From: Moniliella sp. 'wahieum'
Lineage: Eukaryota
DNA length: 64,000 nt
NCBI GenBank assembly: GCA_003971905.1
Contig: RSEE01000006.1
Coordinates: 186,001-250,000 of the forward strand
Reading direction: 5' to 3'
How positions within the stretch are numbered: position 1 is the first letter of the stretch; every line of letters starts with the position of its first letter. Both the position numbers and the translations under genes were made by a program. The notes beneath the pieces are model-generated. The model saw nothing but the letters and a program-made list of their open reading frames with translations. It did not search any database and was not told the DNA's origin. Shown piece after piece: positions 9,166 through 57,900 of this stretch.

Positions 9166-11014
9166 ATGCCCAAAGCAATCGGGATCGATCTTGGCACCAC
9201 CTACTCTTGTGTTGCTGTTCTTGAGGGTGAGCGCGGGTTACGATCATTCGCAACAACCACGGCGATAACACCACCCCCTCGTATGTGGCCTTCACGCATG
9301 GAGAGGCTTATTGGTGAGGCGGCGGTCTCGCAGACTGCCAGGAACCCATCCAATACCGTGTTTGACGCCAAACGACTTATCGGCCGCAGATTTGACGATG
9401 AGGTGGTCCAGGACGATATGAAGCACTGGTCCTTTCAAAGTGGTTGATGTGGACGGTCAGCCGGCAATTCAAGTCAATCAAGGGCGATACGAAGACTTTC
9501 ACTCCCGAGGAAATCTCGGCCATGGTTTTGGTCCAAGATGCGCGAGACGGCCGAGGCGTACCTTGGCGGTCCTGTAAAGGATGCTTGGTGACAGTACCTG
9601 CCTACTTCAACACATCCCAACGCCAGGCTACCAAGGACGCTGGTACCATTGCTGGGCTGAACGTCTTGCGCGTTATCAACGAGCCCGACAGCTGCTGCTA
9701 TTTCTTACGGGTTGGACTCATGACTGAACATAAACGTACTGTCCTCGTCTTTGACTTTGGCGGGTACCTTTGACGATCGTTGCTTGAGATTACAAGGGGA
9801 AATTTGAAGTCAAGGCCACCTCCGGTGATACCCATCTCGGTGGTGAAGACTTCGACACCGTCTTGTCGACCATTTTGTCGAGGAATTCAAACGCAAGGAA
9901 AACAAAGACCTTACATCTAACCCTCGCGCTCTTCGCCGTCTCCGTACTTCTTGCGAGCGCGCGAAGCGCATTCTCTCAGAGGCTGAACATACCACAATCG
10001 AGATCGACTCGTTATTTCAGGGTATTGACTTTATCGCCCCTATCAGCCGAATCTTTTGAGGAGCTGTGCAAGACCTATTTGCCGTATCATTGACCCTGTC
10101 GAGAGCGTCCTGCAAGACGCGAACATTAACAAAATGACGTGACTGACGTTGCTTGGTTGGGGGGTCAAAGGATTCCTCGTGTGCAGCGCTTCTGACGGAG
10201 TTCTTTGACGGGCGCAAGCTCGTCGCTCAATCAACCCCGACGAGGCTGTTGCCTATGGCGCCGCCATCCAGGCTGCGATTCTCGCGGAAGACACACATGT
10301 TGAACCAAGAGCTGATTCTGCTCGATGTAGTCCCACTGTCTTTGGGGTTGGAATCACGGGGTGGTCTGTTTAATGTCTTCATCAACGAATTCAATGGTGC
10401 CCACCAAGGCGGTGAACCCTTCACAACGACTTGATGATGGCCAGACTAGTGCCGGATTTTCCGTGTACGAGGGTGAGCGGTGTCTCGCCGCGAAGAACCA
10501 TTTTCTGGGCATTCACGCTACTGATATCCCGCCTGCGCCCTGTGCTCAGCCTACGCTTGATGTGACTTTTGACTTGGACTACAACTCCATTCTCACGGTG
10601 TCGGCGTTTACAAGAAGACGAACAAATCCAAGCGATTACCATCACCGATAGTGGCTGCCTGTCGAAGCAGGACATTGCGCGCATGGTGTCGGATGCGGGA
10701 AGTACAAGCAAGATGATCACGAAGCGCTGGCACGGATCAATGCCTTAAATGAGCTGGATTTGTACGCCTTCCAAATGCGCCTCTGGCTGCGTGAACATAG
10801 ACACGGAAACGTCACGTCGAACGAACGGGAGGTACTGCAAGCGGCGGTCAATGAGACGTTTGACTGGAAGACGAGTACTCAAGGGTGGCTTCAAAGGAGA
10901 TGTTTGAAGAAACGAAGAGAAACCTGCAGGCCATTGCAGACCCCGTCATGCAGGGATTTGAGCGGCGGAGGCGGACCGCTGGACATCACCGCGCCAGTCG
11001 GCAAACACTCTTAG
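9166..11014 (+). CDS. Atypical cytosolic-type Hsp70, copy 1 (many frameshifts; error versus pseudogene unresolved)
   Basis: [40 protein letters not shown]; no EEVD. Confidence 0.9.
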
Positions 11015-11207
11015 TGGTGAGCATCCTCTGTTGTCCACAAGTACTACTACTACAGCGATGGTCACAAGTGGTTGCGGGTGGAACCCAATACATGCCACTA
11101 TTTTTCTCTCTCTTTTTCTCCTTTCCTTTTCTCCTTCTTCTCTCCTTCTTTCTCCTTCTTCCTCTACCATCTCTTTCTCTTCTCGAATCCGGAACCCCAC
11201 TGTTCTC

Positions 11208-11454
11208 TGTTGAGTATCGGACCACATCATCTGGATTCGAGACTCAACAGTTTGGTTCGGCACTGGTTTGGTTTGTCCTGCTTTGTGGGCCAACCGACTT
11301 GGTGGTCTGATATACAAAGTTCTTTTGCTCGAGTGATCCTTTTTCGTTCTTTTCCCTACGTTGCGTATAAGTAGGACGACCCCACGCGGGTATACAATGT
11401 ATTCTTCACCACACGACTCCCTTTGGCTTGCCTGATAGACTCCGCTACTCTACA
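11208..11454. mobile_element. Solo LTR (247 bp)
   Basis: TG...CA ends with imperfect terminal IR (TGTTGAGTATCGG / CCGCTACTCTACA); 5-bp TSD TTCTC at 11203-11207 and 11455-11459; absent from the paralogous flanks of copies 2 and 4, which have one TTCTC. Confidence 0.85.
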
Positions 11455-11596
11455 TTCTCCTAACACTAAGTGCGGTCGAAAAGACCCCCCTCCCTGCCAG
11501 GTCTCCCATCATGAGCACCGCCATCATCGTATGGCCGTCTTCACAATAAGATGACTTACCGAAATTGACTGTGTGATAACATGATGCATGCCCACT

Positions 11597-11899
11597 AATC
11601 TTCTATTACCATATGGCAGGACCCACCAAAAAGTGTGCAACCCTACTGCTCCCCCACCTGCACGTGCCCCCATTGCCGCGCCAACGACCAATAGTATATA
11701 ATCATCACAAACCCGAAACGACCGCAGTCGGCAGCCTTGTGGCCATGGCGACGGCAGTGGCGGCACAACTCTCGGTGTGGATTGAAGGAACACTGTGCGC
11801 GAGTGTGGTCGTTGGTGCGGCAATGGGGGCACGTGCAGGTGGGGGAGCAGTAGGGTTGCACACTTTTTGGTGGGTCCTGCCATATGGTAATAGAAGATT
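11597..11899. mobile_element. MITE/foldback element with 94-bp terminal inverted repeats
   Basis: 11597-11690 is the reverse complement of 11806-11899 with one mismatch; 115-bp spacer; absent at the homologous position of the other units. Confidence 0.85.
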
Positions 11900-12680
11900 T
11901 TTGCGCCATGAAGCAGAACACTCTGTTCGACATACAGTCTTTAAACTACTACTACAGAGGGCTGTTTTAACGGCGGCAATGAACGGAAACGAGAAGTTGA
12001 GAGCATCTTACACGGTAGTGATCGGGTTCCCCAGCACGGCCCTCAATGGGTCGTGACACTCAGTCGCTTAGCCGGGCGGAAGAGTTCTGCTCGCAGGCCG
12101 TGCATGTGCTGCTCACTCCATTCACCTCTCCTTTCTTTTCTCTTCCTTCCGACGTTGCTTGAGGACTTGTACTCCCACCACGTTGCTTCACGCCTTGTCT
12201 GAAGGCTACTTTGCACCTGATCCATAGGATCGCGAGTGCTCCCGAATCGCACTCTAGCAGCCACAAGGACATGATTACAACCAAATTACGGAGCGCATGT
12301 TACACGCCACTCCAACATTGCGGCTGCGTTTGAGCGGACCGTGAGGAGAGTCGGCGGAGGCCTACTACGCGCTGAAGACTTGATGAAAGGAGACGGAAGC
12401 CAATATCTCATACTAGGCATGTATTAGTATTATGCGTACACACCGATGCAGTCCGATCGATGAGAGGGAAATGACGCTTTTGGGTTGAAAAGGGGCGTTG
12501 AGAGGCACAGAGAGGAAATCGACAGTGCCGCAGTACTGCACTGATGCAGAAACGCCCCCCACAGACGGTAGCCCATACTAACAGGCAGCGCCCACTCGGC
12601 GCAGCCGGCGAGAGAAACTTAAAATATGCTAATGTCTTATAGGCACGGTGCTCTATACTGATTGCTGGCATCTGTCGAGA

Positions 12681-12690
12681 TATATATAAG
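12681..12690 (+). promoter_or_regulatory. TATA box of the Hsp70 unit (equivalents near 9048, 15815, 55598)
   Basis: TATATA(A/G)G about 105-120 bp upstream of the ATG in all four copies, in a conserved context CTGTCGA..TATATA..GAGTGTCCATGCCGAATTAACC. Confidence 0.6.
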
Positions 12691-12800
12691 AGTGTGTCCA
12701 TGCCGAATTAACCATACGCACTCGCACCACCTTCACCAACACCACCCCCTTTCGCACCAGCACCTTCCCGCCCAGCACTTCCCCGTCCTCCTGTCCTACC

Positions 12801-14672
12801 ATGACCAAAGCAATCGGTATCGATCTTGGCACCACCTACTCATGTGTCGCTGTTTTGAGGGTGAAGAGGACGGGGTCACGATCATTCGCAACAGCCAAGG
12901 CAATAAGACCACCCCCTCGTATGTGGCCTTCAACGACATGGAGAGGCTTATTGGTGATGCGGCGCTCAAGCAGACTGCCATGAACCCATCCAATACTGTT
13001 TTGACGCCAAACGACTTATCGGCCGCTGGTATGACGAAGAGGTGGTCCAGTCTGACATGAAGCACTGGCCTTTTAAGGTGACTGATGTGGGCGGTCAGCC
13101 GGTAATCGAGGTACAATACAAGGGCGAGACGAAGCAGCTCAAACCCGAGGAAATATCGTCCATGGTTTTATCCAAGATGCGCGAGACGGCGGAGGCGTAC
13201 CTTGGCGGGCCTGTAAAGGATGCTGTGGTGACTGTACCTGCCTACTTCAACACCTCCCAACGCCAGGCTACCAAGGACGCTGGTACTATTGCTGGGCTGA
13301 ACGTCTTGCATATTATCAGCGAGCCGACAGCTGCTGCTATTGCTTACGGGTTGGACACATGGACGGAGCATAAACGAACTGTCCTCGTCTTTGACTTGGG
13401 TGGCGGTACGTTTGACGCGTCGTTGCTTGACATTACAGAGGGCACATTTGCCGTCAAGGCCACATCCGGTGATACCCATCTCGGTGGCGAAGACTTTGAC
13501 ACCCGTCTCGTCGACCATTTTGTTGAGGAATTCAAACGCAAGGAAAACAAGGACATCACATCTAACCCTCGCGCTCTTCGCCGTCTCCGTACATCTTGCG
13601 AACGCGCGAAGCGCACTCTTTCCGAGGCTGAACATACCACAATCGAGATCGACTCGTTATTTCAGGGTATTGACTTTATCGCCCCTATCAGCCGGTCTCT
13701 CTTTGAGGAGTTGTGCAAAGACCTGTTTTCCCGTATCATTGGCCCTGTCGAGGGCGCCCTGAAACGCGAACATTAGCAAGAATGACGTGACTGACGTTGT
13801 CTTGGTTGGGGGTCAACAAGGATTCCTCGAGTGCAGCGTCTTCTCACGGAGTTCTTTGACGGGCGCGAACTCAGTCGCTCAATCAACCCCGACGAGGCTG
13901 TTGCCTATGGCGCCGCCATCCAGGCTGCTATGCTTGCGGATGACACCGAGTTGACCCAGGAGCTGATTCTCCTCGATGTTGTCCCACTGTCTTTGGGTTT
14001 GAGAAAACACGGTGGTGTATTTTCTGTCATCATCACACGCAATTCAACGGTGCCCACCACAGAGGTGAAACCCTTCACAACGACGTATAACGATCAGACT
14101 ACTGTCAGATTTGCCGTGTACGAGGGTGAACGGTCCCTTGCCGAGGAGAACCATTTCTGGGTGAGTTCAGTCTAACTGATATCCCGCCTGCGCCCGAGGG
14201 TGAGCCCAAGTTTAATGTGACTTTTGACTTGGACTCCAACTCCCTTCTCACGGTGTCCGCCGTTGACGAAAAGACGAACAAATCAAAAACGATTACCATC
14301 ACCGATAGTGGCTGCCTGTCAAAGCAGGACATTGCGCGCATGGTGTCGGATGCGGAGAAGTACAAGCAAGATGATCACGAAGCGCTGGCACGGATCAATG
14401 CCTTAAGTGAGCTGGATTCGTACGCCTGCCAAATGCGCCGCTGGCTGCGTGACCATGAAACTGCGGACAAGCTCAAGCCGGATGAAAGGGTGGTTCTGGA
14501 AACGGTGGTCAATGAGATGTTTGACTGGAAAGACGAGTACTCAACGAAGGCTTCAAAAGAGATGTTTGAAGAAAAGAAAACACACCTGCAGTCCATTGCA
14601 GACCCCATCGTGCAGGGTTTTGAGCGGCGGAGCCGGAGCCCTGGAAATCACCGCGCCAGTCACAGCTCTTAG
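12801..14672 (+). CDS. Atypical cytosolic-type Hsp70, copy 2
   Basis: [46 protein letters not shown]; ends [15 protein letters not shown]; several single-base frameshifts. Confidence 0.93.
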
Positions 14673-15931
14673 TGGTGAGCACCCTCTGCGGTCCCCATGC
14701 ACTATAGCGATGATCACAAGTTGTTGCCAGTGGACCCCAATATATGCCACTATTTTCTCTTCCTCTGTTCTCCTTTCCTTTTCTCTTTCTTTCTCTCCCA
14801 TCTCTTTCTCTTCTCGAATCTGGAACCCACACCCCATCTGTTCTCCTAACAACTAAGTGCGGTCGAAAAGACCCCCTCCCTGCCAGGTCTCCCATCATGA
14901 GCACCGCATCATCGTATGGCCGTCTTCTCGATAAGATCACATACCAAAATTGACGTGTGATAACTGCATGATGCCCACTATACTATATTGTTTCGGCATG
15001 TAGCAGAACACTCTATTCGACGCCCAGTCTTTAAACTGCTGCTACAGTGGGCTGTTTTAACGTCGGCAATGAACGGAAACGAGAGATTGAGAGTATGTTG
15101 GAGGGTAGTGCTACTAGGGTTCCCCTGCACGGCTCTCAATGGGTCGGTGACGCTCATCGCTTAGCCGGCGGAAGAGTTCCGCTCGCAGGCGCGCACGCCC
15201 TGCTCGCACCATCTCCCGTTTCCCTCTCCTTTCGCCCTCCCGTCAGACGTTGCTTGCAGGGTTGTGGCTCACCGTGAGCACTTTGCCTTCCAGCTTCACG
15301 CCTTGTCTGAAGGCTACTTTGCACCTGATCCATAGGATCGTGAGTGCTCCCAAGTCGCGCTATAGCAGCCGCAAGGACATGATTGCAACCAAATGCCGCA
15401 GCGCATGTTACACGCCACTCCAACATTGCGGCTGCGTTTGAGCGGACCGTGAGGAGATGAGGGGCAGGCCTACTACGCGCGCTGAAGACTTGGTGAAAGC
15501 AGACGGAAGCCAATATCGCATACTATATACTACTAGACACATACTAGTATTATGCGTACACACTGATGCAGTGCGATCGATGAGAGGGAAATGTCGCATT
15601 TGAATTGAAAAGGGGCGTTGAGAGGCACAGAGGGGAAATTGACAGTGCCGCAGTACGACACTGATGCAGGCGCGACTGAAACGCCCCCCACAGACGACGG
15701 TAGCCCATACTAACAAGCAGCGCCCACTCAGCGCAGCCGGCGAGAGAAACTTAAGATATGCAAAAGTCTTATACGGCACAGCGACTCTATACTGATTGCT
15801 GGCATCTGTCGAGATATATAAGAGTGTGTCCATGCCGAATTAACCATACGCACTCGCACCACCTTCAGCAACACCACCCCCTTTCGCACCAGCACCTCCT
15901 CGCCCAGCACTTCTCCGTCCCCTCACCTACC

Positions 15932-17814
15932 ATGACCAAAGCAATCGGTATCGATCTTGGCACCACCTACTCATGTGTCGCTGTTCTTGAGGGTGAGGAC
16001 GGGGTCACGATCATTCGCAACAGCGAGGGCAATAAGACCACCCCCTCCTACGTGGCCTTCAACGACATGGAGAGGCTTATTGGTGATGCGTTCACGCAGA
16101 CTGCCATGAACACATCCAATACTGTGTTTGACGCCAAGCGACTTATCGGCCGCTGGTATGACGAAGAGGTGGTCCAGGATGATATGAAGCACTGGCCTTT
16201 CAAAGTGGTTGATGAGGACGGTCAGCCGGCAATTCAAGTGCAATACAAGGGTGAGACGAAGACTTTCACTCCCGAGGAAATCTCGTCCATGGTGTTGTGC
16301 AAGATGCGCGAGACGGCCGAGACGTACCTTGGGGGGCCTGTAAAGGATGCTGTGGTGACAGTACCTGCCTACTTCAACTCCTCCCAACGCCAGGCTACCA
16401 AAGACGCCGGTACCATTGCCGGGCTCAACATCTTGGGCATTGTCAATGAGCCCACGGCTGCTGCCATGGCTTACGGGTTGGACACCATGACTGAACATAA
16501 ACGCACTGTCCTCGTCTTTGACTTGGGTGGCGGTACCTTTGACGTATCGTTGCTTGAGATTACAAAGGGGAAATTTGAAGTCAAGGCCACCTCCGGTGAT
16601 ACCCATCTCGGTGGCGAAGACTTCGACACCCGTCTTGTCGACCATTTTGTCGAGGAATTCAAACGCAAGGAAAACAAAGACCTTACATGTAACCCTCGCG
16701 CTCTTCGCCGTCTCCGTACTTCTTGCGAGCGCGCGAAGCGCACTCTTTCCGAGGCTGAACATACCACAATCGAGATTGACTCGTTGTTTCAGGATATTGA
16801 CTTTATCGCCTCTATCAGCCGGTCTCTCTTTGAGAAGTTGTGCAAAGACCTGTTTTCCCGTATCATTGGCCCGGTCGAGAACGTCCTGGAGGACGCGGAC
16901 ATTAACAAGAATGACGTGACTGACGTTGTCTTGGTTGGGGGGTCAACAAGGATTCCTCGTGTGCAGCGCCTTCTGACGGAGTTCTTTGACGGGCGCAAGC
17001 TCAGTCGCTCAATCAACCCCGACGAGGCTGTTGCCTATGGCCCGCCATCCAGGCTGCTATTCTCGCGGGTGACACCACCGAGTTGAGCCAAGAGCTGATT
17101 CTGCTCGATGTCGTCCCACTGTCTTTGGGTGTGGAAAAGAAAGGTGGTGTGTTTGTTGTCATCATCAAACGCAATTCAAAGGTGCCCACCAAGGAGGTGG
17201 AACCCTTCACAACGTCGTGTGACGACCAGACTACTGTCAGATTTTCCGTCTACGAGGGTGAGCGGTCCCTCGTCAAGGAGAACCATTTTCTGGGTGAGTT
17301 CAGGCTAACTGATATCCCGCCTGCGCCCGAGGGTAAGCCCAAGTTTACTGTGACTTTTGACTTGGACTCCAACTCCCTTCTCACGGTGTCCGCCGTTGAC
17401 GAAGAGACGAACAAATCAAAAACGATTACCATCACCGATAGTGGCCGCCTGTCGAAGCAGGACATTGCGCGCATGGTGTCGGATGCCGAGAAGTACAAGC
17501 AAGATGATGACGAAGCAGTGGCACGGATTAATGCCTTAAATGAGCTGGATTCGTCCGCCTGCAAAATGCGCCGCTGGCTGCGTGACCATGGTACTGCGGA
17601 CAAGTTCAAGTTGAAGCAAAGGGAGGTACTTGAAGCGGCGGTCAATGAGACGTTTGACTGGCACGGCGAGAACTCAACGAATGCTTCAAAGGAGATGTTT
17701 GAAGAAAGGAAATCGAACCTGCAGTCCATTGCAGACCCCATCGTGCAGGAATTTGAGCAGCGGAGCCGGAGCGCTGGAAAGCGCCGCGCCCGGCGGTACA
17801 AGTCTAAGTCGTGA
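15932..17814 (+). CDS. Atypical cytosolic-type Hsp70, copy 3
   Basis: Nearly intact (one frameshift near 17040); all NBD motifs present; ends [17 protein letters not shown]. Confidence 0.95.
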
Positions 17815-19018
17815 GCACCCTCTGTTGTACACAACATGTACTACATCGATGGTCACAAGTGGTTGCGGGTGGAACGCAATACATGCCACTATTTTTCTCT
17901 TCCTTCTCCTTGCTTTTCCTGCTTCTTTCTCTCCCTTTTCTTTCTCTTCTTGAATCTGGAAGCCGCGTTCGATCTGTTATCCTAACGACGAAGTGCGGTC
18001 GAAAAGATCTCCCTCTGCCTGGTCTCTCTTGTCATGATCACCGGCATCATCGTATGGCGGTCTTCACAACACGACATACAGAAATTGTTGACTGTGTGAC
18101 AACGTGATGCCCACTATACTATGCTTTATTCGATGCACAGTCTTTCAACTACTACTATAGAGGGCCGGTTTAAAAAAGGAGAAGTAGTATATGCAACTTG
18201 AGAACCGCGGCTCACAGAGTGACAGAGTGAAGTTCAGTCTCTTCAAAGGAAGCTAGGAAGATGGCTCCAACAAAAGGAAAAAGGGTCCGTGTGCGGGAGC
18301 AAGACTGTCACGGCTGATGTGGGTATTTGGGTATTTAACGTTTAATTGCTTCTCTTCTTGTTTTGGCTACATGTCTCGTGCTGCGCTATATTGATTGGCG
18401 TGCTCTTTTTCACATTGGAAGGCGCGCACTCTCTCGTTCGCTCAGTGGGGGCTATGGCAGAGGTTGCATTACTAAGTCAGACGCCTTCTGGAGGATGTTG
18501 GTGATGCGAAGGGGAGCGCTGGGTTGGAAGGGGGGGAAGGAGGAGGCCCGCTTTGTCTTTCACGTGACCTGGTTCGGTTGGTTCGGTTGGTTGGTCTGAG
18601 ATCTGCGATCTGACTTGTGATAAGGTACGCGCAGCTGAAAACACACTGCTGGGGTGCGGTAGCCGGGAAAGTGCCGCCGTGCCGAGGTGGCGGCGATCTG
18701 CGCAGCAGCTAGAATTCAAGCGAGGCGCGGCACAGCGCCAGTGTAGACTGCGCAAGGGCCAGGTGCCATCTGCCCTATCTCACATCTTCCGTCTCACACC
18801 CCCCATGCCGGGTGGCCCCCGGGCTGGAGCAGTGTTGCAGCAGTGTCGCAGTTTGTGCACCCGCAGCTGGGAGAAGGCCAGACCACCCGTGCGTTCGAGC
18901 CGTCCAGCACACCCGAGTCTTCCTCGTCCTCCCCTCTTCTCTCTTTTCTTTTCTTTTCTTCTCTCCCCCTCCCCCCCACCACTGCCTGTGCCGCGACTCC
19001 GAGTTTCTGCCCCGCAAC

Positions 19019-30997: not shown

Positions 30998-32955
30998 ATG
31001 AGAACGCGCACCGACATCGACCTCGGCCTCGAACCCGTCGAGGCGCAGATCTGCCAGCTGCTCGACGATACGTGCCAATGGATCCAGGCTACCCACCGGT
31101 TCTCTCCCCGGACCTGGAGCCGCGGCCTGATGCAGACGGGAAACGTCCTCCCTCCGCGGCCGAAACACTGCAAGCGAACGAGTGGAAGTGCGAGGCGCGT
31201 ATTGCCGGTGGGTGGGTGCGCGACAAGGTGACCGGCCGTGCTTCGGACGACATGGAGTGTCGCTTTCGAGTTTGACCGGCTTCCATTCGCCCACTATCTC
31301 AAGCTCTACCTTGAATCGGACACGTTCCAGCAGTCTCGGCTCTGTGCCCAGATCGCCGCTCTTCCCGACCAGCTTGGCAAGGGGCAATGGGGATCATTAG
31401 CAAGATTGAAGCCAACCCGAGCAGAGCAAAAACTAGGACTGCCACTGTGGTGTGCTGGGCCGATCGCTCGACTTAGTCAACCTGCGAAGGAAACGTACCT
31501 CAAGGACACAGGATCCCGATCCAAGAATTTGGCACGCCCGTCGAGGATGCCCAACGGCGGGATTGCACCATCAACGCACTTTTCTACAATGTGCACACGC
31601 ACCAGGTGGAGGACATGACTGGCAAGGGCTTGTTGGACTTGTCGCGCGGCATCATACGTACCCGCTCGAACCGTTCCAAACCTTTGAGGACGACCCGCTG
31701 CGAATCCTGCGCTGTGTCCGCTTTGCCAGCCGGTTCGCATTATCTTCCACCAGGACATTAAGGACGTCCTGCTCGGCCCGCGTGGCACGCACTTGCGACA
31801 AGAGTTGGCCTCCAAGATCAGTCGGGAACGGATTGGGATTGAGACGGACAAGATGCTGCGCGGGCCATACCCTGGGATTGCGTTGGATGATTTACATTGG
31901 TTGCATCTGTTCCCCATCGTCTTCCGCCCGCCTCCGGAGCAGGACGGCTCGCCTTCTCCCTTGTTTTTGCCCAACGCTACCACCGAGCCTGTTGCGCCAT
32001 TGCGCTCGGATAAAGAGGCAGTGGCGATCTCCGAGCGATTGGAACGCATCTGGCGCAGGGCAGCGCGAGCCCGCGAAAAGGGTACCTCGCCTCCGTCTCG
32101 GATCGCGCCTCTGTTTGATCCGGAGCAGCGACGCCGGCTGTTTTATGCCGCGGCTCTGTGGCCGCTGGTGGGGCTGGTGACCTGGACCCATCCTGCCGAG
32201 ACCAAGGCGAAAGCCGGACAGAAGACGACGAAGGCGAAGCGCAGTTTGGTCTCGGCCACCGAGAGCGTGTTGCTGGAAGGCCTCAAGCTCGGCGGGCGAG
32301 CAGACCAAGGAACCTGTCGAGGCGCTGTTCAAAGCGCTTGTTGCGCTCGCCGAGTTCAAGGCGTGGGAAACCGCCGCGGTGCAACGAGGCGAGAAGGTGG
32401 AAACGATCCAGACCCAACTCTACTTTCTGTTGCGCAAACCCTGCTTTGTCAACCCGACATACTCCCTTTCCCCTGTTTCGGCCTTCTTCTTTGCTGCGCT
32501 CGCCCATGCCCATTCCGGGTCCACGGACTCCGACTCCGACTCCGACTCCCACTCTCACTCCGACTCCCACTCCCACTCCCACTCCCACTCCGGCTCCGCC
32601 TCCCACCTCGCCCCCACCGCGGACTTGGACCGCTGGTGGACTTGGATCGAGGAGCTGGATATGGTAAGGCGGGCGAGCGAACGGCCACTGTTGAATGGTC
32701 TCCAGATCCAGCAGCTGGTCGGCTTTGCGCCAGGCCCACTCATCCCGGCCATCCAACACCACGTGCTGGAATGGCAATTGTGGAACGTCGCTGCTGACGC
32801 TGCCGCCGGCCCGTCTGCCTCCGCCGTCGCCGCAGCTCAAACTTGGTTCCGTACCGCCTGGGACGCAGGCACCGTCTTACCCCCCCGACGAAGTGGCACG
32901 CGCTCAGGCAGCCGCGGCGGCCAAGGACGCAAAGAAGACCAAAAGGAAAACGTAA
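30998..32955 (+). CDS. CCA1: CCA-adding tRNA nucleotidyltransferase
   Basis: EARIAGGWVRDK, FGTPVEDAQRRDCTINALFYN, TFEDDPLRILRCVRFASRF, KISRERIGIE. Confidence 0.9.
32527..32592 (+). repeat. Coding hexamer microsatellite (ACTCC[C/G])n encoding DSDSDSHSHSDSHSHSHSHS
   Basis: Directly visible 6-bp repeats inside the CCA1 C-terminal region. Confidence 0.9.
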
Positions 32956-34534: not shown

Positions 34535-35003
34535 GGTGGTGGTGGTGGTGGTGGTTCGGGGGGGGCTAGTGACTAGGGACGTGGGCACGCCAGGACTCGG
34601 TCAGTGCGGGGCAGTCGGTGATGCGTGACGCGTGACGAGCCAAGGCATGCATCATGCATCATGCACGGGGCGGGGCAGATATCAGTCACACGCCACGTCA
34701 CACGTCACGTGGTGCCCGTGAGCATGCGTAGGGTTAGCGCTTTGCTTGAGCGCAATTCGATCGGCACCTCTGCTCTTGTTCGCGCCATCGCATAAGCAAC
34801 CCTCATTGATCACCCATCCCCCCACGCGCCAGCCAGCCCCCACCGCTCGGCCCTGCCACCACCCGCACCCGCACCACCTTCCCCGCTTGCAACTCCCTTC
34901 CTCGCACCCGCTACGCCGCCCTCGCCGCCCCAAAAGTCAGCCCCCCCTTCTTCCTCCCTCGCAACTCCAACACCTGCAGCTGTTGCCCCCCCAGTTACGT
35001 GCC

Positions 35004-35333
35004 ATGCCGATGCCCGCAAGCCCAACGTAAACGAGATGAAGCTTCGCCGCCTCACCGAGAACAATGCGCGGCTTCAGGAGGACCTGCGTCGGCCGCGCAT
35101 CAAGGTTTCTGAAGCCAGCCAATCGTACGTGGATCTGCTCCCTGGTTGTGCTTTGCGATCTGCCATCTAACCCCTCTTGGCCACTTTCGGCTGCCCATCA
35201 ACCCAGCTTGGTGGCCTACTGCCAAGCCACGCACGACCCCCTCATCCCATCCGTTTGGGGTACTGTCGACAAGAAGGACGACCCCTATGCCCCGAAACAA
35301 ACTACTGCCGGATGCGAGTGCGTCGTCATGTGA
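35004..35333 (+). CDS. Heterotrimeric G-protein gamma subunit
   Basis: EMKLRRLTENNARLQEDLRRPRIKVSEASQS|LVAYCQATHDPLIPSVWG...GCECVVM* (CAAX); intron 35125-35206 with CTAAC branch point. Confidence 0.92.
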
Positions 35334-41975: not shown

Positions 41976-43059
<1,084 letters not shown>

Positions 43060-43659: not shown

Positions 43660-46612
43660 TCATAGGCCTCGCGGCTGCACCGCGCCCCAGGTGTAGAGCA
43701 GCGCGTGCTCATTGTCCTCCGTTACGCGCTTGACGTTGGCTCGCAGCTCATTGAGCGACGCCTGGACCTCGCGCAGGACAGGCGCCACGCTATTTGCCGT
43801 CTTGCCACGCAGCGTCTTGCCATGGGCCGTCATGAGCGCGGCGAGCCAACGGAGGTGGTACTCGACATGGGGCGAGTTGGCACGCGGGTGCATCCGCGCC
43901 GCCACCAAACGCAGCAACGGCACCACATACAAACTCGGCACTTGGCCCGCCACCAAACTAATCTCATGCGCCGGGATGCGTTCGTACATCTCGGCCAACA
44001 GCCCGCTCAGCCAAACGCAGCGCACCAATCAGCGCCATCAGATGCTCCCCGTCCTGCGCTGCTTCCCGGATGCCCTGCGGGGTCAGGTCGAGGTCCAAAT
44101 CGAACGGGTCAAACTGCGCCGCAGAGCGGGCCGCATCCAACGAGTAAATCTGCAAGCCACTCGTCGTGCTCGCTGCCCAGTTGCGGCCGGTCGGATCGAA
44201 GCGGATGCAGGTGGAGCGCGACAGGGGCGGGGTGGAACGTTGGCTTCCATCGCCCGTTTGGACGCCTGGAAGACTCCGGTCCTTTCGCTGCGCACGTCAA
44301 CTCCTCGTCGTCGTCCTGGAGCAGATCAATGTTGCCTGCAGCAGTGAGCTTGCGCGAGTCGAGGCGGACCTGCAAGCCGTCAAAGTCAAAGTTGCCCGTA
44401 ATCTGCCAGCGCTTGAGCAACACCTTCTCCCGTACATCGTACAGACAGATCCAGTTGCTGTTGCCCGATGCCAGCACGCTCTCCCCATCAGCCGAATAGG
44501 TGAGGGAGGTGAAACAGTTGTCGCCCTTGCGGCTGTCGGCGGCGGTCCGATCGCCTCGCCTGCGGCCACGCGCAATGTCCCGCCGCGCCTCAATCACGCC
44601 CGTTTGGGTCGATAGTTTGGTATCAAAGAAACTCAGTTGCCATCCAGCGTCGCCACACAGACTCGATCGAGTCGGACGGAAGGCGACAGCCATAGCTTCG
44701 CTGTTGAGTTGGATCGTCTCGGTTTGCTTGCCGTCGCGGAACACCTCCCAGATCCGTAGCGTCCGGTCCCACGACACACTCACCAACGTGCCCCGCCCGT
44801 CGGGCGCAAATGCCAAGCCAGACACGGGGCCAGTATGCCCGCCAAACGTCTCGATCAGCTTGCCCGTCTGGACGGACCACATGTAAATCTCAAACTGGTC
44901 CTGGCTGCCGGCCACCACCACCTCGCCACTTGGCTCGACGGCCAAGGAGCCAAACTGGACCGGATCCGGCGTGACAAACGTACGGAAGTTGCGGTAGCGA
45001 ATCAAGTCCCAGGCGCGTACCGTGCCGTCCAAACTGGCACTAAACAGGACCTGGCCACCGCGCTTGGCAAATTCCAACGCGGTCACTTCGGCCGTGTGCT
45101 GCTCAAACGTGACGGTGGCCAGACCGGTCGTCGTGTTCCACAACTTGAGCCGACCATCGCCACCGCCCGTGACGATGGTGGTGCCATCGGGAGAGTAGGC
45201 AAGGAATGGATCAAGCCCATATGGTGCGCCTGCTGACGCAAAATGTAATTGCTCGACGCCCATTCCCACACCATCAGTTGGCTCGTCGAGCCGGAACCGA
45301 GCGCGAGCCAGTCGCCAGTCGGGGACAAGCGGGCGGTAGTGAGAGAGGCATGGGAGATACTCAGTTCATGCACCTTGCTAAAATCAGGCAGCGTGTGTAG
45401 CGTAAACACGCCCGAATCAAACGCGGTCAACAACAGACCCGTTGCAGCGTGGTAGTCCACCGACCGCACCTCCTCGTGCGCGCGAAAGTAGTAGAACCGT
45501 TCGGCAATGTCCCAGCGTGTAGTAGCCAGACGATGCGGGGGTAACCGTTCCTCCTCTAACGCTTCGCGTTGTCGCCGGGAACGTTGCTCCTCCTCCATCT
45601 CCCGCTCCATCTCCACCTCCATCTCCTCATCATCGCTCTCCTCCTCCTCCTCCTCCTTGGCACGCCACACAAAGCACGCACCGTCTCGACTGACGGTATA
45701 GATCTCGGTTTCGTCCGCATTGAAGAAGGCGCCAATCACCGGAGCCTTGTGCCCACTAAACGTCTTGGGCTTGAACTTGCGCCAGCGCCGCACACCGCCC
45801 GGGTACTTGGGGTCGGCAACGGGTTCCGCCAGTGGGACCAAGACCGGGTTGAGCGAATAGAGGCGGCAAGTCATGTCTTTGGAGGTGGTGAGGAACATGC
45901 TGCATTCCTGTCAGTTCCATCCTCGGATGCGACAAGAAGGGGGGGGAGGGGGGGGAACGTACTCGCTGCTCTTGCTCCACGTGATGCTCAGCACATCCTC
46001 AAAGTGACCCGTGTAGACACGGTGCAGTCAAAGGGGGTGAAGGAAGGAGCGATGATGCCAATGGTCGGGGTCCCGTTCTGGTCGACGGTGGCAAAGCCCG
46101 GGTCTTCCATACTTGGATATGATGGTTGTGGGTGACGGCAAGGTAGCGCGCGTCGGGGCTGAACTGTGCGTCGCGAAGAGGCGCCTTGAAGGAGATTTGG
46201 GCCAGGACGATTCGCGTCCGAGCGCGCGGTGGAGCTGACACCGACCCCGCCCAGCGAGTCGGGCACGGTCGCCGTCGCGCGGAACGAGACCAGCGTCGCG
46301 CGGCCGTCTTGTCGGACGCAAGGAGGAGGTGGGTGTTGCTGTGCGGGCCGAGGGCAGGGGACAGAGCAAGACGCGCAATGGAATGCTTCAGCTCAAAGTC
46401 AAACGTGCGCGTCGACGTGGCATAGACCGCGTCCTGCGCCGCCGCTGGCTCGCCGCCCGCGAGGGGACTGTGCTGCTGAGGGGAAAGACGCTGCAGCGGG
46501 CGCCAATGGGGCTGATGATGGACGACGAGTCGGGGGTGAAGACGACGTTGCTGATGCCGTCGTACACGCTGCCCAGGACGCTCTGGAGGTGGAACTGGGT
46601 AGAGCCAGGCAT
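43660..46612 (-). CDS. PWP2: WD40 SSU processome protein Pwp2/Utp1
   Basis: FHLQSVLGSVY..NVVFTPD, QLMVWEW..YILRQQ, SASLDGTVRAWDLIRYRNFRTF, SPHVEYHLRW. Confidence 0.92.
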
Positions 46613-50104: not shown

Positions 50105-50174
50105 GGATGGATGACGGCTGGATTTGTTTTGAAATAGTCTGTGGTTGCCGTTGTCGGAATTCGGACTGGAGCAG

Positions 50175-50225: not shown

Positions 50226-50314
50226 CGGAAGGCGCGGCGGGAGCGCAGAGCACCGAGGCAGAGCACACACCTGCGTCGTCGCTACCACCACCACCACCAC
50301 CACCACCAACCCCC

Positions 50315-52415
50315 ATGCGCTCGCTGCGGTCTGCTCGTGTGCTGCCCCGCCGCCGCCTTCCTCGGTGGAGTGTGTGCCCTCGTCGGAGACCGAGGAGGAG
50401 CCCGACGCGTACCTCGACTCGGACCCTGCGCCCGACGAGGACGACCCATCCGCCTCCTCCGCCGCGCACGCCGCGCCCGCCTGCGCCCGCTCCGCCCCCC
50501 TCCGCCTCCGCCGCCTCGTCGCCCCTCTCCTCGCCCCCCACCTCCCCCACCCTCCGGCACCTGCGCCCGCCAAGCGCATCACACGCAGCGCCGCCGCCCG
50601 CATGCCCTGCTCCCCCAGCCCCCCTGCTCCTGGTATGTGTACGCCCTGCTGCCTCTCTTTGGGTCGAATGCTAGGATGAGCATCCGAGAGCTAATCTGTT
50701 CTGCCTGCTAGCCCCGCCCCGCCCGCCGAAGAGAAAACGGTCGGACAAGGCCGAGACAAGACAAGCCAGTCCCCCGGCACCCAAGCGCGCTTTTGAGCGC
50801 ACCCACTCCTCTGCTTCGACCTTGGTCGACGAAAGCTCGGACTGCGAAACCGTGACGGGCGACCCAGTCGCCGAGACCAAAGCCACAGTGCTCGAGCCAA
50901 GCGAAACGTTCCCGCATGTCTATGCCCATGCTCGCTCCCTCCTCCGCTCTGCCCATCCCGCCCACACCCTCATTGGCCGTGAAACCGAACGAAGCACCAT
51001 CCATTCCTTTCTCTCTGCCCGCCTCGGTCCATCGTCAGAAGGGCCAGCGTCACTCTACATTGCCGGCACACCCGGCACGGGCAAGACAGCGCTGGTGTGC
51101 GATGTTGTGGCCAAATTTCAATCCGAGGCAGAGGTGGTGATCCTCAACTGTTGCGCTCGCCTCGGCGGCCGATGTGTACGGTACCATCTTGAGCCACTTG
51201 CCCTGCGGCACAGGGAAGCGAAGTCGCACGTCGAGTGAGTCGGAGCGACTGCTGCTCTCTCACCTGACCGCACCAAGTAGCAAGACGGTGATCGTGCTGG
51301 ACGAGATGGACGCGCTGGTGCGCACCGGTGCGCACCAGGACGTGTTGTACAAAATCTTTTTGGCTGTGGCCCAGGCGAATCCCAGTCGGGCCCAGGCGAA
51401 GGCTAAGACAGCTTTGATTGGCATTGCCAACTCGCTCGATCTCGCCCACCACTTTTTACCCTTACTCGCTGCCCACGCAGCCTGTCCCGAGCTGCTCAGT
51501 TTCACTCCGTTTACCGCACAGGAAATTGTACAAGTGGTCACTGCGCGGTTGGACGCCCTCTGGGCTCGCGCCGACGCGCCCCCCAAGCCCGAGACTGAGG
51601 CTGACGCACTGCCCATCTTTAGCGTCCCAGGACTCCGACTGGCAGCAATGAAGGTGGCAGCTGCGACGGGCGACCTGCGCAAAGCGCTCGACGTGTGCCG
51701 CTTGGCCATCGAGACGCTTGAGACGCAACAGCGCAAAAAGGGCGTGGACCTAACCTGCTTGACTCCTGCCTCGGCCGCGCGTGTAGGCCCACCACAGGTA
51801 CTGACGGCGATCGCCAAGACACTTGTCGCTGCCGGTGCCGGGTCCTGCTCAGCGACAGTAGCCAAAGTTCGGGGCTTGCCGTTGCATGGCGGGTTACTGT
51901 TGGCGTCCTACTTGCTCGTCGACACGCGCCAGCACCACCTCGGGCCTCGTCAGCCAATCGATGTGGCAAGCGTATACGATACCTACACACGCATCTTGTC
52001 TGACGACGGCAGCTTTTCCCCGCTGCCCTTGGGCGACGTGTTGGACCTCCTGGCTAGTCTCGAGACGCAAGCCTTCCTCGACCTCAGTGCGCCGTGCGCG
52101 CCACGTAAGGGCGCCGGCGGGACCAAGGGAAGCAAGCCCGGCATGCGCCATGCCCCGCTGGGCGCGCGCGCACGTATCGTCACGCTCCGCCTGCCGGTGG
52201 AGGAGGTGCGACGCGGACTGACGGAGCCGGCGGCAGGCGCTGCGGCGGGAGGATCAGGACAAACTGTGGCGGCCGAGACGATTGGGCGACTGCTGCAAAC
52301 TGAGACGAGGCGGATCCTGCGAGCCAAAGGGTGGGAACAAGCTGCGGACGCGTTCCAGCACACCCGCGCAGAGGAGTTGGGCGGCGGACGCTTGGCCGTG
52401 GCCAAGGGCTTGTAG
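50315..52415 (+). CDS. CDC6: Replication initiator Cdc6/Cdc18
   Basis: YIAGTPGTGKT, IVLDEMDAL, LIGIANSLDL, KVAAATGDLRKALDVCR; intron about 50633-50710. Confidence 0.92.
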
Positions 52416-52649
52416 CGTACCACGAGGTTTAGAATCGAGTCGTTTGCTTTGTTGTTGCTTTCTGCTTGCTTGGCCGGCACCCGACAAAGAAGATAGACCT
52501 GTGAGCTCAAGAGATATACTTAGCACTGGTGAGATCTATGTTTTCCTCTCCTCATTTTGCCACCACCTCCATCTTCCCGCCGCTCTGGGCCGGGTGGGGT
52601 GGATGGGTTGGAGGAGCAGGCGTAGGCGTAGGTGCAGAAAGCGTGGCTG

Positions 52650-54900
52650 ATGGGATGCCTAACCTCCCCGTAGCCGTCCCACCACACTACGTCAAGATAC
52701 CGGACTTCTTGTTTCGTCGCTCCCCTCCATCCTCCAACACGCCCGGGATCGGTATCGCCCTCGCCCACAGCCCACTGTCACCATCTCATCGATATCGTCC
52801 GCCCATGCACTCTGTCCATCTGCTGGCCCGTGCGGCTGGACGTGCGCGCCGCTTGCATTTATCCTGGCCACGCTAAAACCCCCATCGTAGGTCACTTCAA
52901 GGAATAGTGGACCAACCGAGTTGCAAGGGTACAACGGCACGGAGCATCCGTGGTAGCCCCCCGGGGGGGCAGGAAGCGAGAAGGGGTTGGGGTGACCTCC
53001 CCTTCCCTCCCCTCTCTCCCGAGCTGCTGTACATCCTGCGGTGCAGGTCAAACCATCAGCGTCGACGGTTCACTGCCCCTCGACTCAGGCCTCACAACTA
53101 TAGCCCAATCCACAGGATGCCCCTGCAGTGTCGTTTGCGCGTTGCAATCTCACTCGTTCTCCCGACCTACGCCCATTTAGTAGTCATGGACGGGCAGTCT
53201 AGACAGCGCGGAGCCTTCTACTGCTCCTACTACCAAGCTGGGCAAGCGCCACGGTCCTCAGTTCCTGTGCCCCGCGGGGGTCACTTTGTGCGCCGAAATC
53301 GATCCGAGCACAGCATTCTGTCCATTGAAGACGGTAGCAACGGCTGCCTTGGTGGTGGAAGTGGCCAATTGACGAGACGTGCTCAAGTAAACCCCATGGC
53401 AGTTCATTCTGATGCGACCAGTGTGGCCCACAGCGATCCTGGAACAAACGCGGGTCATTATCGTTCCACAGCACGCGGCTGTTCGGTATCGTCTGGGCGA
53501 GGAGCAGAGGTTGCTCTGTTTACTCTACATGTATGAAGAGTGTCCTGTAGTGTTTTTTGCTTCTAGAGTGCGTGGTGCCAGGTGAGGCAGGATGATGGGT
53601 AGTTGTGAGCTACTGCTCTTTCCTCTTGACTTTTTGTGAGCCGCGCTGGGTTGGGCTATGGAGCATCATGACCGTGATGCAGCTAGCCTTTCTCACCTGG
53701 CCTGCTGTTACTGCTGCACCGGACAGCGACAAAGCTTCTGTGTTTCCTCCGAGACGCTCGTCTACCCCTCGGAGACTTGCCGTTTTGCACTAAGGAGCTA
53801 TACTACTCATCGTTCATCAGCACAGAGTGTGTGGTCACCGCCCATATCTAAGTTCAAGTAGCAACCGTACAGCTGAAAAGCCGGTCACTGTGTGCAGCAC
53901 ACGGGACTGTTGAGTGGGTAGTCCGTACCGGGTTGGAGCACAAAGAAGCGGTGCCCCAAGGCTTTCTGAGCCGAACTGCGCAGGTTGGGGTCGGGGTGGA
54001 AGAGGCGATGGATCGACAAAGGTCCTGGATTGTCTAATCTTCAGTACCAGTATCCGCAATACCTCTTCTGTGTTGTACATAGAGTAGGTAATAGCAGATG
54101 CCGGCGACCGTATCTTGTTCGTTTCAGTCCTCAGTCTTTTCTGCTGGTTTATCTTCACCTCAACCGTTCTTTTTGCTGCGGTGTGGAGGGAAAAAACGGT
54201 TCTTCTCTCCCCTCTTGCCTCCTTCTCTCGAACCAGCCTTTCCACAGTCCCCACATCCATTTCTCCCATTTCAGTGGCGCTCGCACCGCTCTCCATCTCG
54301 GGTTCCTGCAGTGCGCGACGACGCCGCCGGCATTCCCCGGTCTCTTGACCGGCAGTATGTCGTACATCTCACTCGGGGTGTTTCCATTGGCCTGCCCCTC
54401 CCCCCGGGGCTCCTGTACGAAGGGGACGTGCAGGATGTGCGCACTGCAGTACGGATAGGTAGATACGCACAACAGGCATCCGCTACGTTCCTTCACGAGA
54501 CGTTTCATCTGGTATCCGATTAGTCTGTTGCACGGCTGCGGACTTTACTGTTCGACTTGGCATATATGTCTATATACCTCTCCAAGTTGGGTCGACCTCT
54601 ATGACCTTCTAAGCTTTTCCTTTTTACCTCCACACGTCGAATATACTATTTCGACTTGGAACATGTTGTTTACTAATACTTCCAAGTTGAAGCTACCTCT
54701 GTGACTTTGAACGCTTCCTCCTTATTACCTCCACAGTTGTATCTCCTGTTTCTCTTCCCTCGCGACTTGGCAGCGCGTCGCCTGCCACTTATGTTTTCCT
54801 TTTGCTTTGTGACCGGAGACGCTGGAGAGACATCCTTTCTTCTTTCATTCATGCCTTGGCCCTTGGACGACGACCACTACCACCTGTGGTCTGGCGAGCT
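52650..54900 (+). pseudogene. Possible degenerate F-box/repeat-protein gene
   Basis: Only DLPFPPLSPELLYIL (F-box-like, about 52995) and recurring LPP motifs; no continuous ORF. Confidence 0.2.
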
Positions 54901-54915
54901 TACCCGGGGGGGGGC

Positions 54916-57900
54916 TGTTAGAGGGTAAGTACTAGTGCTGGGATTCCACTGCACAGCCCTCAATGGATCGGTGACGCTCGCTTAGCTGGGCGGAAGAGTT
55001 GCGCTCGCAGGCCGCGCACGCCCTGCTCGCTCCATCTCCCTTCTCCCCCTCCTTTCTCCTTCCCTTCAGACGTTGCTTGAAGACTTGGGGCCCACCACTT
55101 TGCCTTCACGCCTTGTCTGAAGGCTACTTTGCACCTGATCCGTAGGATCGCGAGTGCTCCCAATTCGCACTCTAGCAGCCGCAAGGACATGATTGCAACC
55201 AAATTCCGCAGCGCATGTCACACGCCACACTCCAACATTGCGGTTGCGTTTGAGCGGACCGTGAGGAGATTCGGCGGAGGCCTACTACGCGCTGAAGACT
55301 TGGTGAAAGCAGACGGAAACCACCATCTCATACGAAACATGTACTAGTATTATGTGTACACACCGATGCAGTCCGATCGATGAGAGCTTTTGGATTGAAA
55401 AGGCGTGTTGAGACGCACAGAGGGGAAATCGACAGTGCCGCAGTACGACGCTGATGCAGAAACGCCCCCCACGGACGGTAGCCCATACTAACAGGCATCC
55501 GCGCCCACTCAGCCCAGCCGGTGAGAGAAAACTTAAAATATGCAAAAGGCTTATACGGCACAGCGACTCTATAATACTGTTGATTGGCATCTGTCGATAT
55601 ATAAGAGAGTGTCCATGCCGAATTAACCATACGTACGCGCACCACATACCAGCTCTCTCCCCACCACCTCCCCGCCCAGCACTTCTCCGCCCTCCTCACC
55701 TACCATGACCAAAGCAATCGGGATCGATCTTGGCACCACCTACTCATGTGTCGCTGTTTTTGAGGGTGAGGACAGGGTCACGATCATTCGCAACAGCGAA
55801 GGCAATAACACCACCCCCTCCTACGTGGCCTTCAACGACATGGAGAGGCTTATTGGTGATGCGGCGTTCAAGCAGACTGCCATGAACCCATCCAATACCG
55901 TGTTTGACGCCAAACGGCTTATCGGCCGCAGATTTGACGAAGAGGTGGTCCAGGATGATATGAAGCACTGGCCTTTCAAAGTGGTTGATGAGGACGGTCA
56001 GCCGGCAATTCAAGTCCAATACAAGGGCGATACGAAGACTTTCACTCCCGAGGAAATCTCGGCCATGGTTGTGTCCAAGATGCGCGAGACGGCCGAGGCG
56101 TACCTTGGTGGGCCTGTAAAGGATGCTGTGGTGACAGTGCCTGCCTACTTCAACACCTCCCAACGCCAGGCTACCAAAGACGCTGGTACCATTGCCGGGC
56201 TCAACATCTTGGGCATTGTCAATGAGCCCACTGCTGCTGCCATGGCTTACGGGTTGGACACCATGACTGAACATAAACGTACTGTCCTCGTCTTTGACTT
56301 GGGTGGCGGTACGTTTGACGTATCGTTGCTTGACATTACAGCGGGCACATTTCCGTCAAGGCCACCTCCGGTGACACCCATCTCGGTGGCGAAGACTTTG
56401 ACACCTGTCTCGTCGACCATTTTGTCGAGGAATTCAAACGCAAGGAAAACAAGGACATCACATCTGACCCCCGCGCTCTTCGCCGTCTCCGGACTTCATG
56501 CGAGCGCGCGAAGCGAACTCTTTCCGAGGCTGAACATACCACAATCGCGATCGATTCGTTATTTCAGGGTATTGACTTTATCGCCTCTATCAACCGGTCT
56601 CTCTTTGAGGAGCTGTGCAAAGACCTGTTTTCCCGTATCATTGGCCCTGTCGAGAGCGTCCTGCAAGACGCGAACATTAACAAAAATGACGTGACTGACG
56701 TTGTCTTGGTTGGGGGATCAACAAGGATTCCTCGTGTGAAGCGCCTTCTATCGGACTTCTTTGACGGGCGCAAACTCAATCGCTCAATCAACCCCGACGA
56801 GGCTGTTGCTTATGGCGCCGCCATCCAGGTTGCGATTCTCGCGGGTGACAAAAACCCCGAGTTGAGCCAAGAGCTGATTCTGCTCGATGTAGTCCCACTG
56901 TCTTTGGGTGTGAGAAAACACGGCGGTGTGTTTTCTGCCATCATCAAACGCAATTCAAGGGTGCCCACCACGGGGGTGAAATCCTTTCGCACAACGCATC
57001 ATGGCGACCAGGCTGATGTCAGAATTTCCGTGTACGAGGGTGAGCGGTCCCTCGTCGAGGAGAACCATTTTCTGGGCGCGTTCAGGTTAACTGATATCCC
57101 GCCTGCGCCCTGGGATGAGCCTACGATTGATGTGACTTTTGACTTGGACACCAACTCCATTCTCACGGTGTCGGCTGTTGACAAGAAGACGAACAACTCC
57201 CAAACGATTACCATCACCGATAGTGGCCGCCTGTCAAAGCAGGACATTGCGCGCATGGTGTCGGATGCCGAGAAATACAAGAAAGATGATCAGGAAGCAG
57301 TGGCACGGATTAATGCCTTAAATGAGCTGGATTTGTACGCCTGCCAAATGCGCCGCTGGCTGCGTGAACATGGTACTGCGGACAAGCTCAAGCCGAAGGA
57401 AAGGGAGGTACTGGAAGCGACGGTCAATCAGACGTTTGACTGGCACGGCGAGTACTCAACGAAGGCTTCAAAGGAGAGTTTCAAGAAAAGAAAAGACACC
57501 TGCAGGCCATTGCAGACCCCATCGTGCAGGGATTTGAGCAGCGGAGCCGGAGCGCTGGAAAGCGCCGCGCCAGTCACAGCTCTTAGTGGTGAGCACCCCC
57601 TGTTGTCCACGTGTATTACAGCGATGGTCACAAGTGGTTGCGGGTGGAACCCAATATATGTCACTATTTTTCTCTTCCTATTCTCCTTTCCTTTTTACTC
57701 TTTCTTTCTCTCTCTCTTTCTCTTCTCGAATCTGGAACCCACACCCCATCTGTTCTCCTAACAACTATGTGCGGTCGAAAAGACCCCCTCCCTGCCAGGT
57801 CTCCATCATGAGCACCGGATCATCGTATGACACCGGATCATCGTATGACCGTCTTCACAATAAGATGACACATAATACCGAAGTTGACTGCGTGATAACA

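Follow-up and report, generated by a model that had tools for sequence, protein, structure and literature searches.

A four-copy family of divergent Hsp70 genes with variable substrate-cleft loops in Moniliella sp. 'wahieum'

The window analyzed here is a 64,000-nucleotide stretch of the genome assembly of Moniliella sp. 'wahieum' (contig RSEE01000006.1, positions 186,001 to 250,000 of the forward strand; coordinates below count from the first nucleotide of the stretch), and its subject is a set of four Hsp70-like genes (Table 1). A tblastn search of the window with a canonical Ssa query returned only these four loci, and their coding sequences agree with the span, 9166..57586, over which an earlier reading of the stretch (the sequence-only reading) had placed four Hsp70 paralogs. 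All four copies are intronless and ~90% identical in DNA (92% mean column identity over a 2 kb alignment), with substitution differences of 8-12% and protein identities of 80-87% between them. Pfam PF00012 was matched by all four fragments tested, with E values of 1e-55 to 1e-161; these fragments of copies 3 and 4 cover profile positions 1-367, 369-597, 1-210, and 208-585 of 599, a full-length match that includes the nucleotide-binding domain (NBD), the substrate-binding domain (SBD), and the lid. Copies 1-3 are arranged in tandem at a spacing of 3.1-3.6 kb, and copy 4 is a complete unit in the same orientation ~40 kb away, where it sits between unrelated genes. The duplicated unit measures ~3.0-3.1 kb and comprises ~650 bp of upstream sequence, the coding sequence, and ~470 bp of downstream sequence. 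A TATA-like element, ATATATAAGAG, is conserved in the upstream flank ~100 bp ahead of the ATG. The wider spacing between copies 1 and 2 (3.6 kb versus 3.1 kb elsewhere) is due to two private insertions in that spacer, one of ~245 nt (~11212-11457) and the other a ~317 nt foldback whose 101-nt arms (11590-11690 and 11806-11906) are 96% complementary and enclose 115 nt. The foldback (11590-11906) could be an insertion resembling a miniature inverted-repeat transposable element or a palindromic artifact of long-read sequencing.

Table 1. Coordinates of the Hsp70-like copies, their flanks, and the private insertions in the window.
Feature	Position	Strand	Evidence and remarks
Hsp70-like copy 1	9166-11014	+	Open reading frame (ORF) lists and DNA alignment; ~31 small indels; no in-frame stop after correction
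Hsp70-like copy 2	12801-14672	+	Five frame-breaking indels: ~12861, 12999, 13761, 13807, 14153
Hsp70-like copy 3	15932-17814	+	Single 1-nt deletion at ~17041; otherwise an open frame of 627 codons
Hsp70-like copy 4	55705-57586	+	Dispersed, 39.8 kb from copy 3; 1-nt deletions at ~56352 and ~57477
Upstream flank, copy 1	8500-9165	+	Flank alignment; ~650 bp, conserved in all four copies
Matching upstream flanks, copies 2-4	~12150-12800, 15280-15931, 55050-55704	+	Flank alignment
Downstream flank, copy 4	57587-58060	+	Matches the flanks after copies 1-3; alignment and repeat families D10, D17, D18
Two private insertions	11212-11906	.	Private to the copy 1-copy 2 spacer

Frame-breaking indels of 1-2 nt number ~31, 5, 1, and 2 in copies 1-4, respectively, and in-frame 3-nt indels are also present in all four. 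When the four copies are reduced to a majority consensus, a clean ORF of 625 codons results, and after frame correction no in-frame stop was found in the 4 × 625 codons. Two essential genes in the window provided a measure of the assembly error rate. In the DEAD-box helicase gene Dbp8, two compensating frameshifts (2560-2645, + strand) bracket a stretch of 26 residues that, read in the other frame, shows 92% identity with the protein of a relative, and in WDR3/Utp12 (43675-45901, - strand) there are at least three frame switches (~45215, 44285, and 43990) with no room for an intron; the WDR3 orthologs used for this comparison (P0320 and P0372) were picked as the likely ones from a list of 150 dominated by repeat proteins. 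Together these amount to five breaks per 3.8 kb, or ~1.3 per kb of coding sequence, and predict 2.5 breaks per Hsp70 copy. At this rate the probability of at least 5 breaks is 0.105 and that of at least 31 is 2e-23. Because the essential genes Dbp8 and WDR3 are also frame-broken, frameshifts in this assembly cannot be read as pseudogenization, and errors of the assembly are the most likely source of the breaks in copies 2-4. The case of copy 1 differs. It has ~31 indels versus 83 private substitutions (private substitutions number 37 to 69 in the other copies), a number of indels per substitution that far exceeds natural decay. Among its 25 deletion events, 12 hit alignment columns at which the remaining copies vary, compared to a background of 13% (p = 4e-5). 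Two readings of copy 1 are left, a true pseudogene and a repeat whose consensus was poorly resolved, and the pattern fits an artifact as much as a dead gene.

The encoded proteins were compared with solved Hsp70 structures by alignment, which established their fold, and residues are numbered according to human HSPA1A. Residues 2-369 of copy 3 align with the NBDs of human HSPA6 and HSPA1A (E = 1e-164), and the actin-like ATPase motif blocks, which we take to be phosphate-1, phosphate-2 (DLGGGTFD), and adenosine (GGSTRIP), are identical. The same blocks are kept in copies 2 and 4 and are partly broken by indels in copy 1. The sequence-only reading had described the NBD motifs as retained, in copy 1 as far as its indels allow; the intact blocks of copy 3 bear this out, with the correction that frame-breaking indels occur in all four copies. 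The hydrophobic interdomain linker ELILLDV is retained as well. The loop variants listed in that reading for the β-subdomain of the SBD (SBDβ; positions 404-408, 429-438, and 465-470) were reproduced after frame correction. Positions 404-408 of copies 1-4 read ESRGG, RKHGG, EKKGG, and RKHGG, respectively, and positions 465-470 read PPAPCA, PPAPEG, PPAPEG, and PPAPWD, compared to ETAGG and PPAPRG in five canonical sequences of the alignment. Positions 429-438 read TTTYDGQTSA in copy 1, and copy 4 has the one-codon insertion reported earlier in this region (+3 nt at 56987). The PPAPRG arginine, position 469, which we take to be the latch residue touching the lid, is replaced by C/E/E/W. [quoted passage not shown] When the substrate-contact residues of the HSPA1A cleft, as listed in a passage of PMC8269394, are considered, the pocket positions stay hydrophobic: 403 is L/L/V/V, 428 is F in all four copies, 438 is A/V/V/V, and 440 is F/F/F/I. 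Two further pocket positions mapped onto HSPA1A in this analysis behave likewise (474 is L/F/F/I and 476 is V in all four copies).

The C-terminal tails contain neither GGMP nor EEVD and have a short basic end of the form ...FE(R/Q)R(S/R)R(S/T)(A/P)G..R.., whereas all aligned canonical sequences end in EEVD. EEVD is the docking site for co-chaperones with tetratricopeptide repeats. Position R171, the equivalent of DnaK R167 according to alignment reasoning and presumably the arginine that contacts the J-domain, reads R/H/G/G in copies 1-4. DnaK R167 is described in a passage of PMC5519331 as pairing with D35 of DnaJ.

Protein identities between the copies and canonical Ssa proteins are 58-64%, compared to 81-96% for the canonical Ssa proteins of fungi with one another. 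The divergence is distributed unevenly and peaks where the canonical proteins vary least: identities to the Ssa of Tilletiaria are 72-74% for the NBD (canonical baseline, 86-88%), 52-57% for SBDβ (89-95%), and 38-40% for the lid and tail (72-76%). A maximum likelihood tree with 34 rows joins the four copies in a single clade (support 100) whose stem measures 1.31 changes per site; this long-stemmed clade is nested in the Ssa group of the Ustilaginomycotina (support 98). The earlier proposal that these are not housekeeping chaperones is upheld by the low identity to Ssa, the long stem, the absence of GGMP and EEVD from the tails, and the replaced arch residues and PPAPR arginine, and the tree with canonical Hsp70s that it called for places the copies as just described. 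Informative sites that split the copies 2:2 divide 27/25/21 over the three possible topologies and are clustered along the gene, an even and clustered split which indicates that segments were exchanged among copies by gene conversion. When a collection of 5.8 billion proteins was searched with residues 208-585 of copy 4, none of the 120 top-ranked among 8000 scored proteins exceeded 60% identity, and a query consisting of the lid plus tail gave no match at E ≤ 0.001 among longer proteins, which is weak evidence. A scan of metagenome contigs yielded four loci, the best at 50% identity.

Selection was estimated with codon models fitted to copies 2-4 only, using a star tree for which topology is irrelevant. 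The ratio of nonsynonymous to synonymous rates (dN/dS, ω) was 0.31 for the NBD (likelihood ratio test against 1 = 43.3, p = 5e-11), compared to 1.02 for the whole of SBDβ and 1.00 for the lid and tail, neither of which differs significantly from 1. For the three cleft loops (32 codons) ω was 2.77 with a nominal p of 0.042, for the remaining SBDβ scaffold (80 codons) it was 0.56 (p = 0.12), and for the motif spans singled out in the sequence-only reading (21 codons) it was 3.18 (p = 0.047). A further set of contact residues (13 codons) contained no synonymous change and was not significant. Pairwise estimates by the method of Nei and Gojobori (NG86) agree with these fits. When all four copies were considered, 21 of 32 residues were variable in the cleft loops and 24 of 81 in the rest of SBDβ (Fisher p = 0.0006); for copies 2-4 alone the counts were 17 of 32 and 17 of 81 (p = 0.0013). 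The loops were selected with the variation already in view, and the p values for both enrichment and ω are post hoc and uncorrected; the loop ω itself rests on 32 codons, three sequences, and an error-prone assembly. With these limits, the uneven selection on NBD and SBD and the concentration of variable sites at the cleft that had been predicted were both found. The purifying selection on the NBD of copies 2-4, which has acted since the duplications, is beyond what random sequencing errors could make. The pattern of neutral decay that the prediction had set against itself, a dN/dS uniformly near 1 with real stops, was not seen, in that ω is not neutral over the whole gene in copies 2-4 and no in-frame stop remains in any of the four corrected frames. 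Relaxed constraint would explain the loop data almost as well as diversifying selection, and the data do not separate the two.

The Hsp70 units (8001-18000 and 54001-58000) are islands of 52-53% GC against surroundings of 58-69% GC. The GC content at third codon positions (GC3) is 0.60-0.66 in the copies and 0.68-0.75 in neighboring genes, and since this difference is modest, the dip arises mostly from AT-richer flanks and protein composition. Mutation resembling repeat-induced point mutation was considered as a cause of the lower GC and rejected, as the private changes have a transition/transversion ratio of ~0.8-1.5 and show no excess of C>T/G>A. A foreign origin of the copies is not supported, as their GC3 falls just short of the neighbors' and their clade lies within the subphylum of the host itself.

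The window as a whole is eukaryotic in character, with 52-69% GC and few introns. The neighbors are housekeeping genes and include Nop14, Dbp8, DUF498, an UNC-93-like transporter, ATG11, a PP1-type phosphatase, WDR3/Utp12, Nop52, the mitochondrial S16 protein, and a Cdc6/ORC-like ATPase. In the N-terminal part of WDR3, the tblastn alignment of a homolog crosses two in-frame stops (~46030 and ~45900, - strand), which may represent a short intron or additional assembly errors. Many long ORFs occur on both strands between 18500 and 36000, all without a Pfam match at E ≤ 1e-4 save two, a weak match to a poly(A)-polymerase/CCA-adding RNA-binding domain (31688-32794) and a G-gamma-like match (34796-35167); these ORFs are possibly not genes because GC-rich DNA yields long frames by chance. 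The best named match of the Dbp8 protein is that of Tilletiaria anomala (62% identity), followed by other Ustilaginomycotina, and it was also matched at 86% and 75% identity in two further assemblies. These matches mark the organism as a basidiomycete related to the smuts that lacks a close annotated relative. A canonical-type, EEVD-bearing Hsp70 of a relative (P0002) and the 75% Dbp8 homolog (P0122) are each recorded on a single contig of exactly 19,913 bases, possibly the same one, which suggests that in this relative a normal Ssa-type gene may be located near Dbp8, where the window has the divergent array. P0002 joins the clade of the window copies in the best tree with a support of only 22. 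The array may descend from an Ssa-type gene that was already located near Dbp8, which we regard as a lead and not as a result.

We propose, with a probability of roughly 0.55, that the copies constitute a family of atypical cytosolic Hsp70s, young and specific to its lineage, in a fungus of the Ustilaginomycotina, with altered coupling to clients and co-chaperones. According to this proposal, which is drawn from sequence comparison, an intronless Ssa-type gene would have evolved very fast, a ~3.1 kb unit of promoter, coding sequence, and 3' flank would have been copied to give three units in tandem and one 40 kb away, and gene conversion would then have swapped segments between the copies. The ATPase domain and linker are held by purifying selection, and the ATP-driven clamp cycle therefore probably stays intact. 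The client-binding side would have been freed from the canonical constraint, with an arch composed of a basic residue and a small polar residue or His and with a lid that evolves neutrally; the short basic tail takes the place of GGMP/EEVD, and H or G stands at the predicted J-domain contact arginine in three copies. Given that the hydrophobic pocket is kept, the binding of hydrophobic segments is probably kept too, and the proteins most likely still clamp such segments with preferences that are altered and specific to each paralog. We further infer from the sequences that they are uncoupled from EEVD-dependent co-chaperones.

Several observations weigh against this proposal. Every Hsp70 copy is frame-broken in the assembly sequence as given, and the private changes of copy 1 are at a neutral ratio (62 nonsynonymous and 21 synonymous). 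An ω of ~1 over the SBD and lid is the value that neutral decay of that half of the gene would give, an ω above 1 for the loops is nominal and post hoc, and the NBD value of 0.31 is presumably far looser than that of canonical Hsp70s. Consensus errors in a tandem repeat might create part of the apparent mosaicism, and the lack of a close relative in the searched collections also fits dead genes that escaped annotation. No trimeric heat shock element (HSE) with one mismatch or fewer was found in any of the four upstream flanks. Finally, variation focused on the cleft of an Hsp70 with a conserved engine is unusual and testable, yet the family is small and the indel errors of the assembly blur which copies are intact.

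Three other explanations were weighed. The array could be in the death phase of birth-and-death evolution, its members being pseudogenes in decay that derive from a divergent Ssa paralog with a former function, and the variability of the loops would then be neutral drift. Frame-breaking indels in all four copies, ~31 of them in copy 1, would fit this explanation, as would an ω of ~1 for the SBD and lid, the slightly lower GC3, and the failure to find a protein closer than 60% identity among the best 120 of 8000 scored from 5.8 billion. What makes it doubtful in our view is the NBD ω of 0.31 among copies 2-4 (p = 5e-11), the complete lack of in-frame stops in 4 × 625 codons, and frameshift counts in copies 2-4 that fit the error rate of the essential genes Dbp8 and WDR3. 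Even for copy 1, the number of indels per substitution, which is far above that of natural decay, and the preference of its deletions for sites that vary between paralogs, which resembles a consensus artifact, count against simple decay. That the SSA subfamilies hold taxon-specific copies and putative pseudogenes (passages of PMC3879978) is again on the side of dead genes. An error of the assembly itself, in which the paralog differences or the copy number stem from a poor repeat consensus in an error-prone long-read assembly, is very improbable. Indel errors are demonstrable in essential genes, the deletions of copy 1 are enriched at paralog-variable columns, and the palindromic foldback adjoins that copy; however, substitutions of 8-12% with a strong codon-position pattern (NBD ω of 0.31) go beyond random error, flanks and in-frame indels are individual to each copy, and copy 4 is located 40 kb away between unrelated genes.

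The third explanation is adaptive diversification, in which the cleft loops would be selected to differ, one ligand per paralog, with the ATPase as a common switch and with clients, or molecules of a parasite or host, as the ligands. It is consistent with an ω of 2.77 (p = 0.042) for the cleft loops and 3.18 (p = 0.047) for the motif spans against 0.56 for the scaffold and 0.31 for the NBD, with the enrichment of variable sites in the loops (21/32 versus 24/81), with the variation of both arch residues between copies while the pocket stays hydrophobic, and with the precedent of positive selection in divergent Hsp70 expansions (passages of PMC6872716). We nonetheless consider it unlikely. The p values are uncorrected and the loop set was picked after the variation was seen, only three sequences are usable and gene conversion is present, and the lid and tail also have an ω of 1.0, which suggests general relaxation; in addition, there are only four copies, and the neighbors are housekeeping genes with no linked gene that hints at defense or secretion. 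The diversifying repertoire of the sequence-only reading has the loop ω of 2.8 on its side, a value that is only nominally significant (p of 0.04, 32 codons, three sequences) and that relaxation fits nearly as well. Four copies in one genome are insufficient for a ligand-specific repertoire, and no result of the analysis hints at a role as sensor or decoy, in antiviral action, or in host interaction. A stronger version, in which the family is an Hsp70-derived recognition system with an ATPase switch and cleft loops (arch, L3,4, and L5,6) that diversify per ligand, would amount to the recruitment of a chaperone fold as a small set of variable receptors in a basidiomycete. This version, in which the family may have taken the place of the canonical Ssa-type gene apparently present near Dbp8 in the relative, appears to us quite improbable.

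The substrate cleft of Hsp70 is among the most conserved surfaces in biology. If the proposal of a young, atypical cytosolic family is correct, these close paralogs, which keep the ATPase and the pocket and swap the arch, the latch, and the co-chaperone handles, would constitute a natural series on how the cleft loops set client specificity, and on how an Hsp70 operates when EEVD coupling and the canonical contact with the J-domain are missing. If the copies are dead or unexpressed, the locus is an ordinary case of SSA birth and death. The window also holds a warning for genome scans, in that frameshifts in this assembly, whose essential genes carry them too, cannot be taken as a sign of pseudogenes.

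Compared with the canonical Ssa/Hsc70 proteins of the Ustilaginomycotina (Tilletiaria, Meira, and Acaromyces), the copies share the PF00012 architecture and the NBD motif blocks and are nested within that group. They differ from them in that the arch and the PPAPR arginine are replaced, as is the presumed R171 equivalent in three copies, and the GGMP/EEVD tail is missing, and, whereas the canonical proteins are under strong constraint, the copies have ω values from 0.31 to at least 1 and lie as four copies in tandem or nearby. Large tandem expansions of HSP70 genes reportedly exist in oyster, shrimp, and wheat. The Hsp70 expansion of Halicephalobus mephisto resembles the present family in its bursts of long-branch paralogs, in indications that some lineages evolved under positive selection, and in tandem duplication as the driver, according to passages of PMC6872716. 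That family is large and its expression is heat-induced, in contrast to four copies without an HSE here, and those passages do not describe changes as concentrated in the cleft loops. The birth and death of SSA genes in Ascomycota (Kominek et al. 2013, PMC3879978) provides a parallel of another kind, with taxon-specific copies and putative pseudogenes gained and lost and orthology assigned by synteny; the study covers Ascomycota, with four Basidiomycota genomes as the outgroup, and its passages describe neither a remodeled cleft nor a lost EEVD, the term EEVD having no hits in the text of the paper. TbHsp70.c of Trypanosoma brucei is also of the cytosolic type and lacks GGMP/EEVD, with A406 and Y431 substituted and the other pocket residues kept (passages of PMC8269394). 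It differs in belonging to an unrelated lineage, in being one gene and not an array, and in its arch, which is acidic plus valine (D/V) as opposed to basic plus polar here, and it keeps stimulation by J-proteins, whereas three of the present copies have H or G in place of the putative contact arginine. TbHsp70.c is described in the same source as an active ATPase and holdase, which indicates that atypical forms without EEVD can be functional. Since divergent Hsp70 expansions and EEVD-less Hsp70s with a changed arch are known from these sources (PMC6872716 and PMC8269394, in the passages referred to above), the suggestion of an undescribed system was overstated. We conclude that the family is not a new system and that it extends known kinds of Hsp70 divergence.

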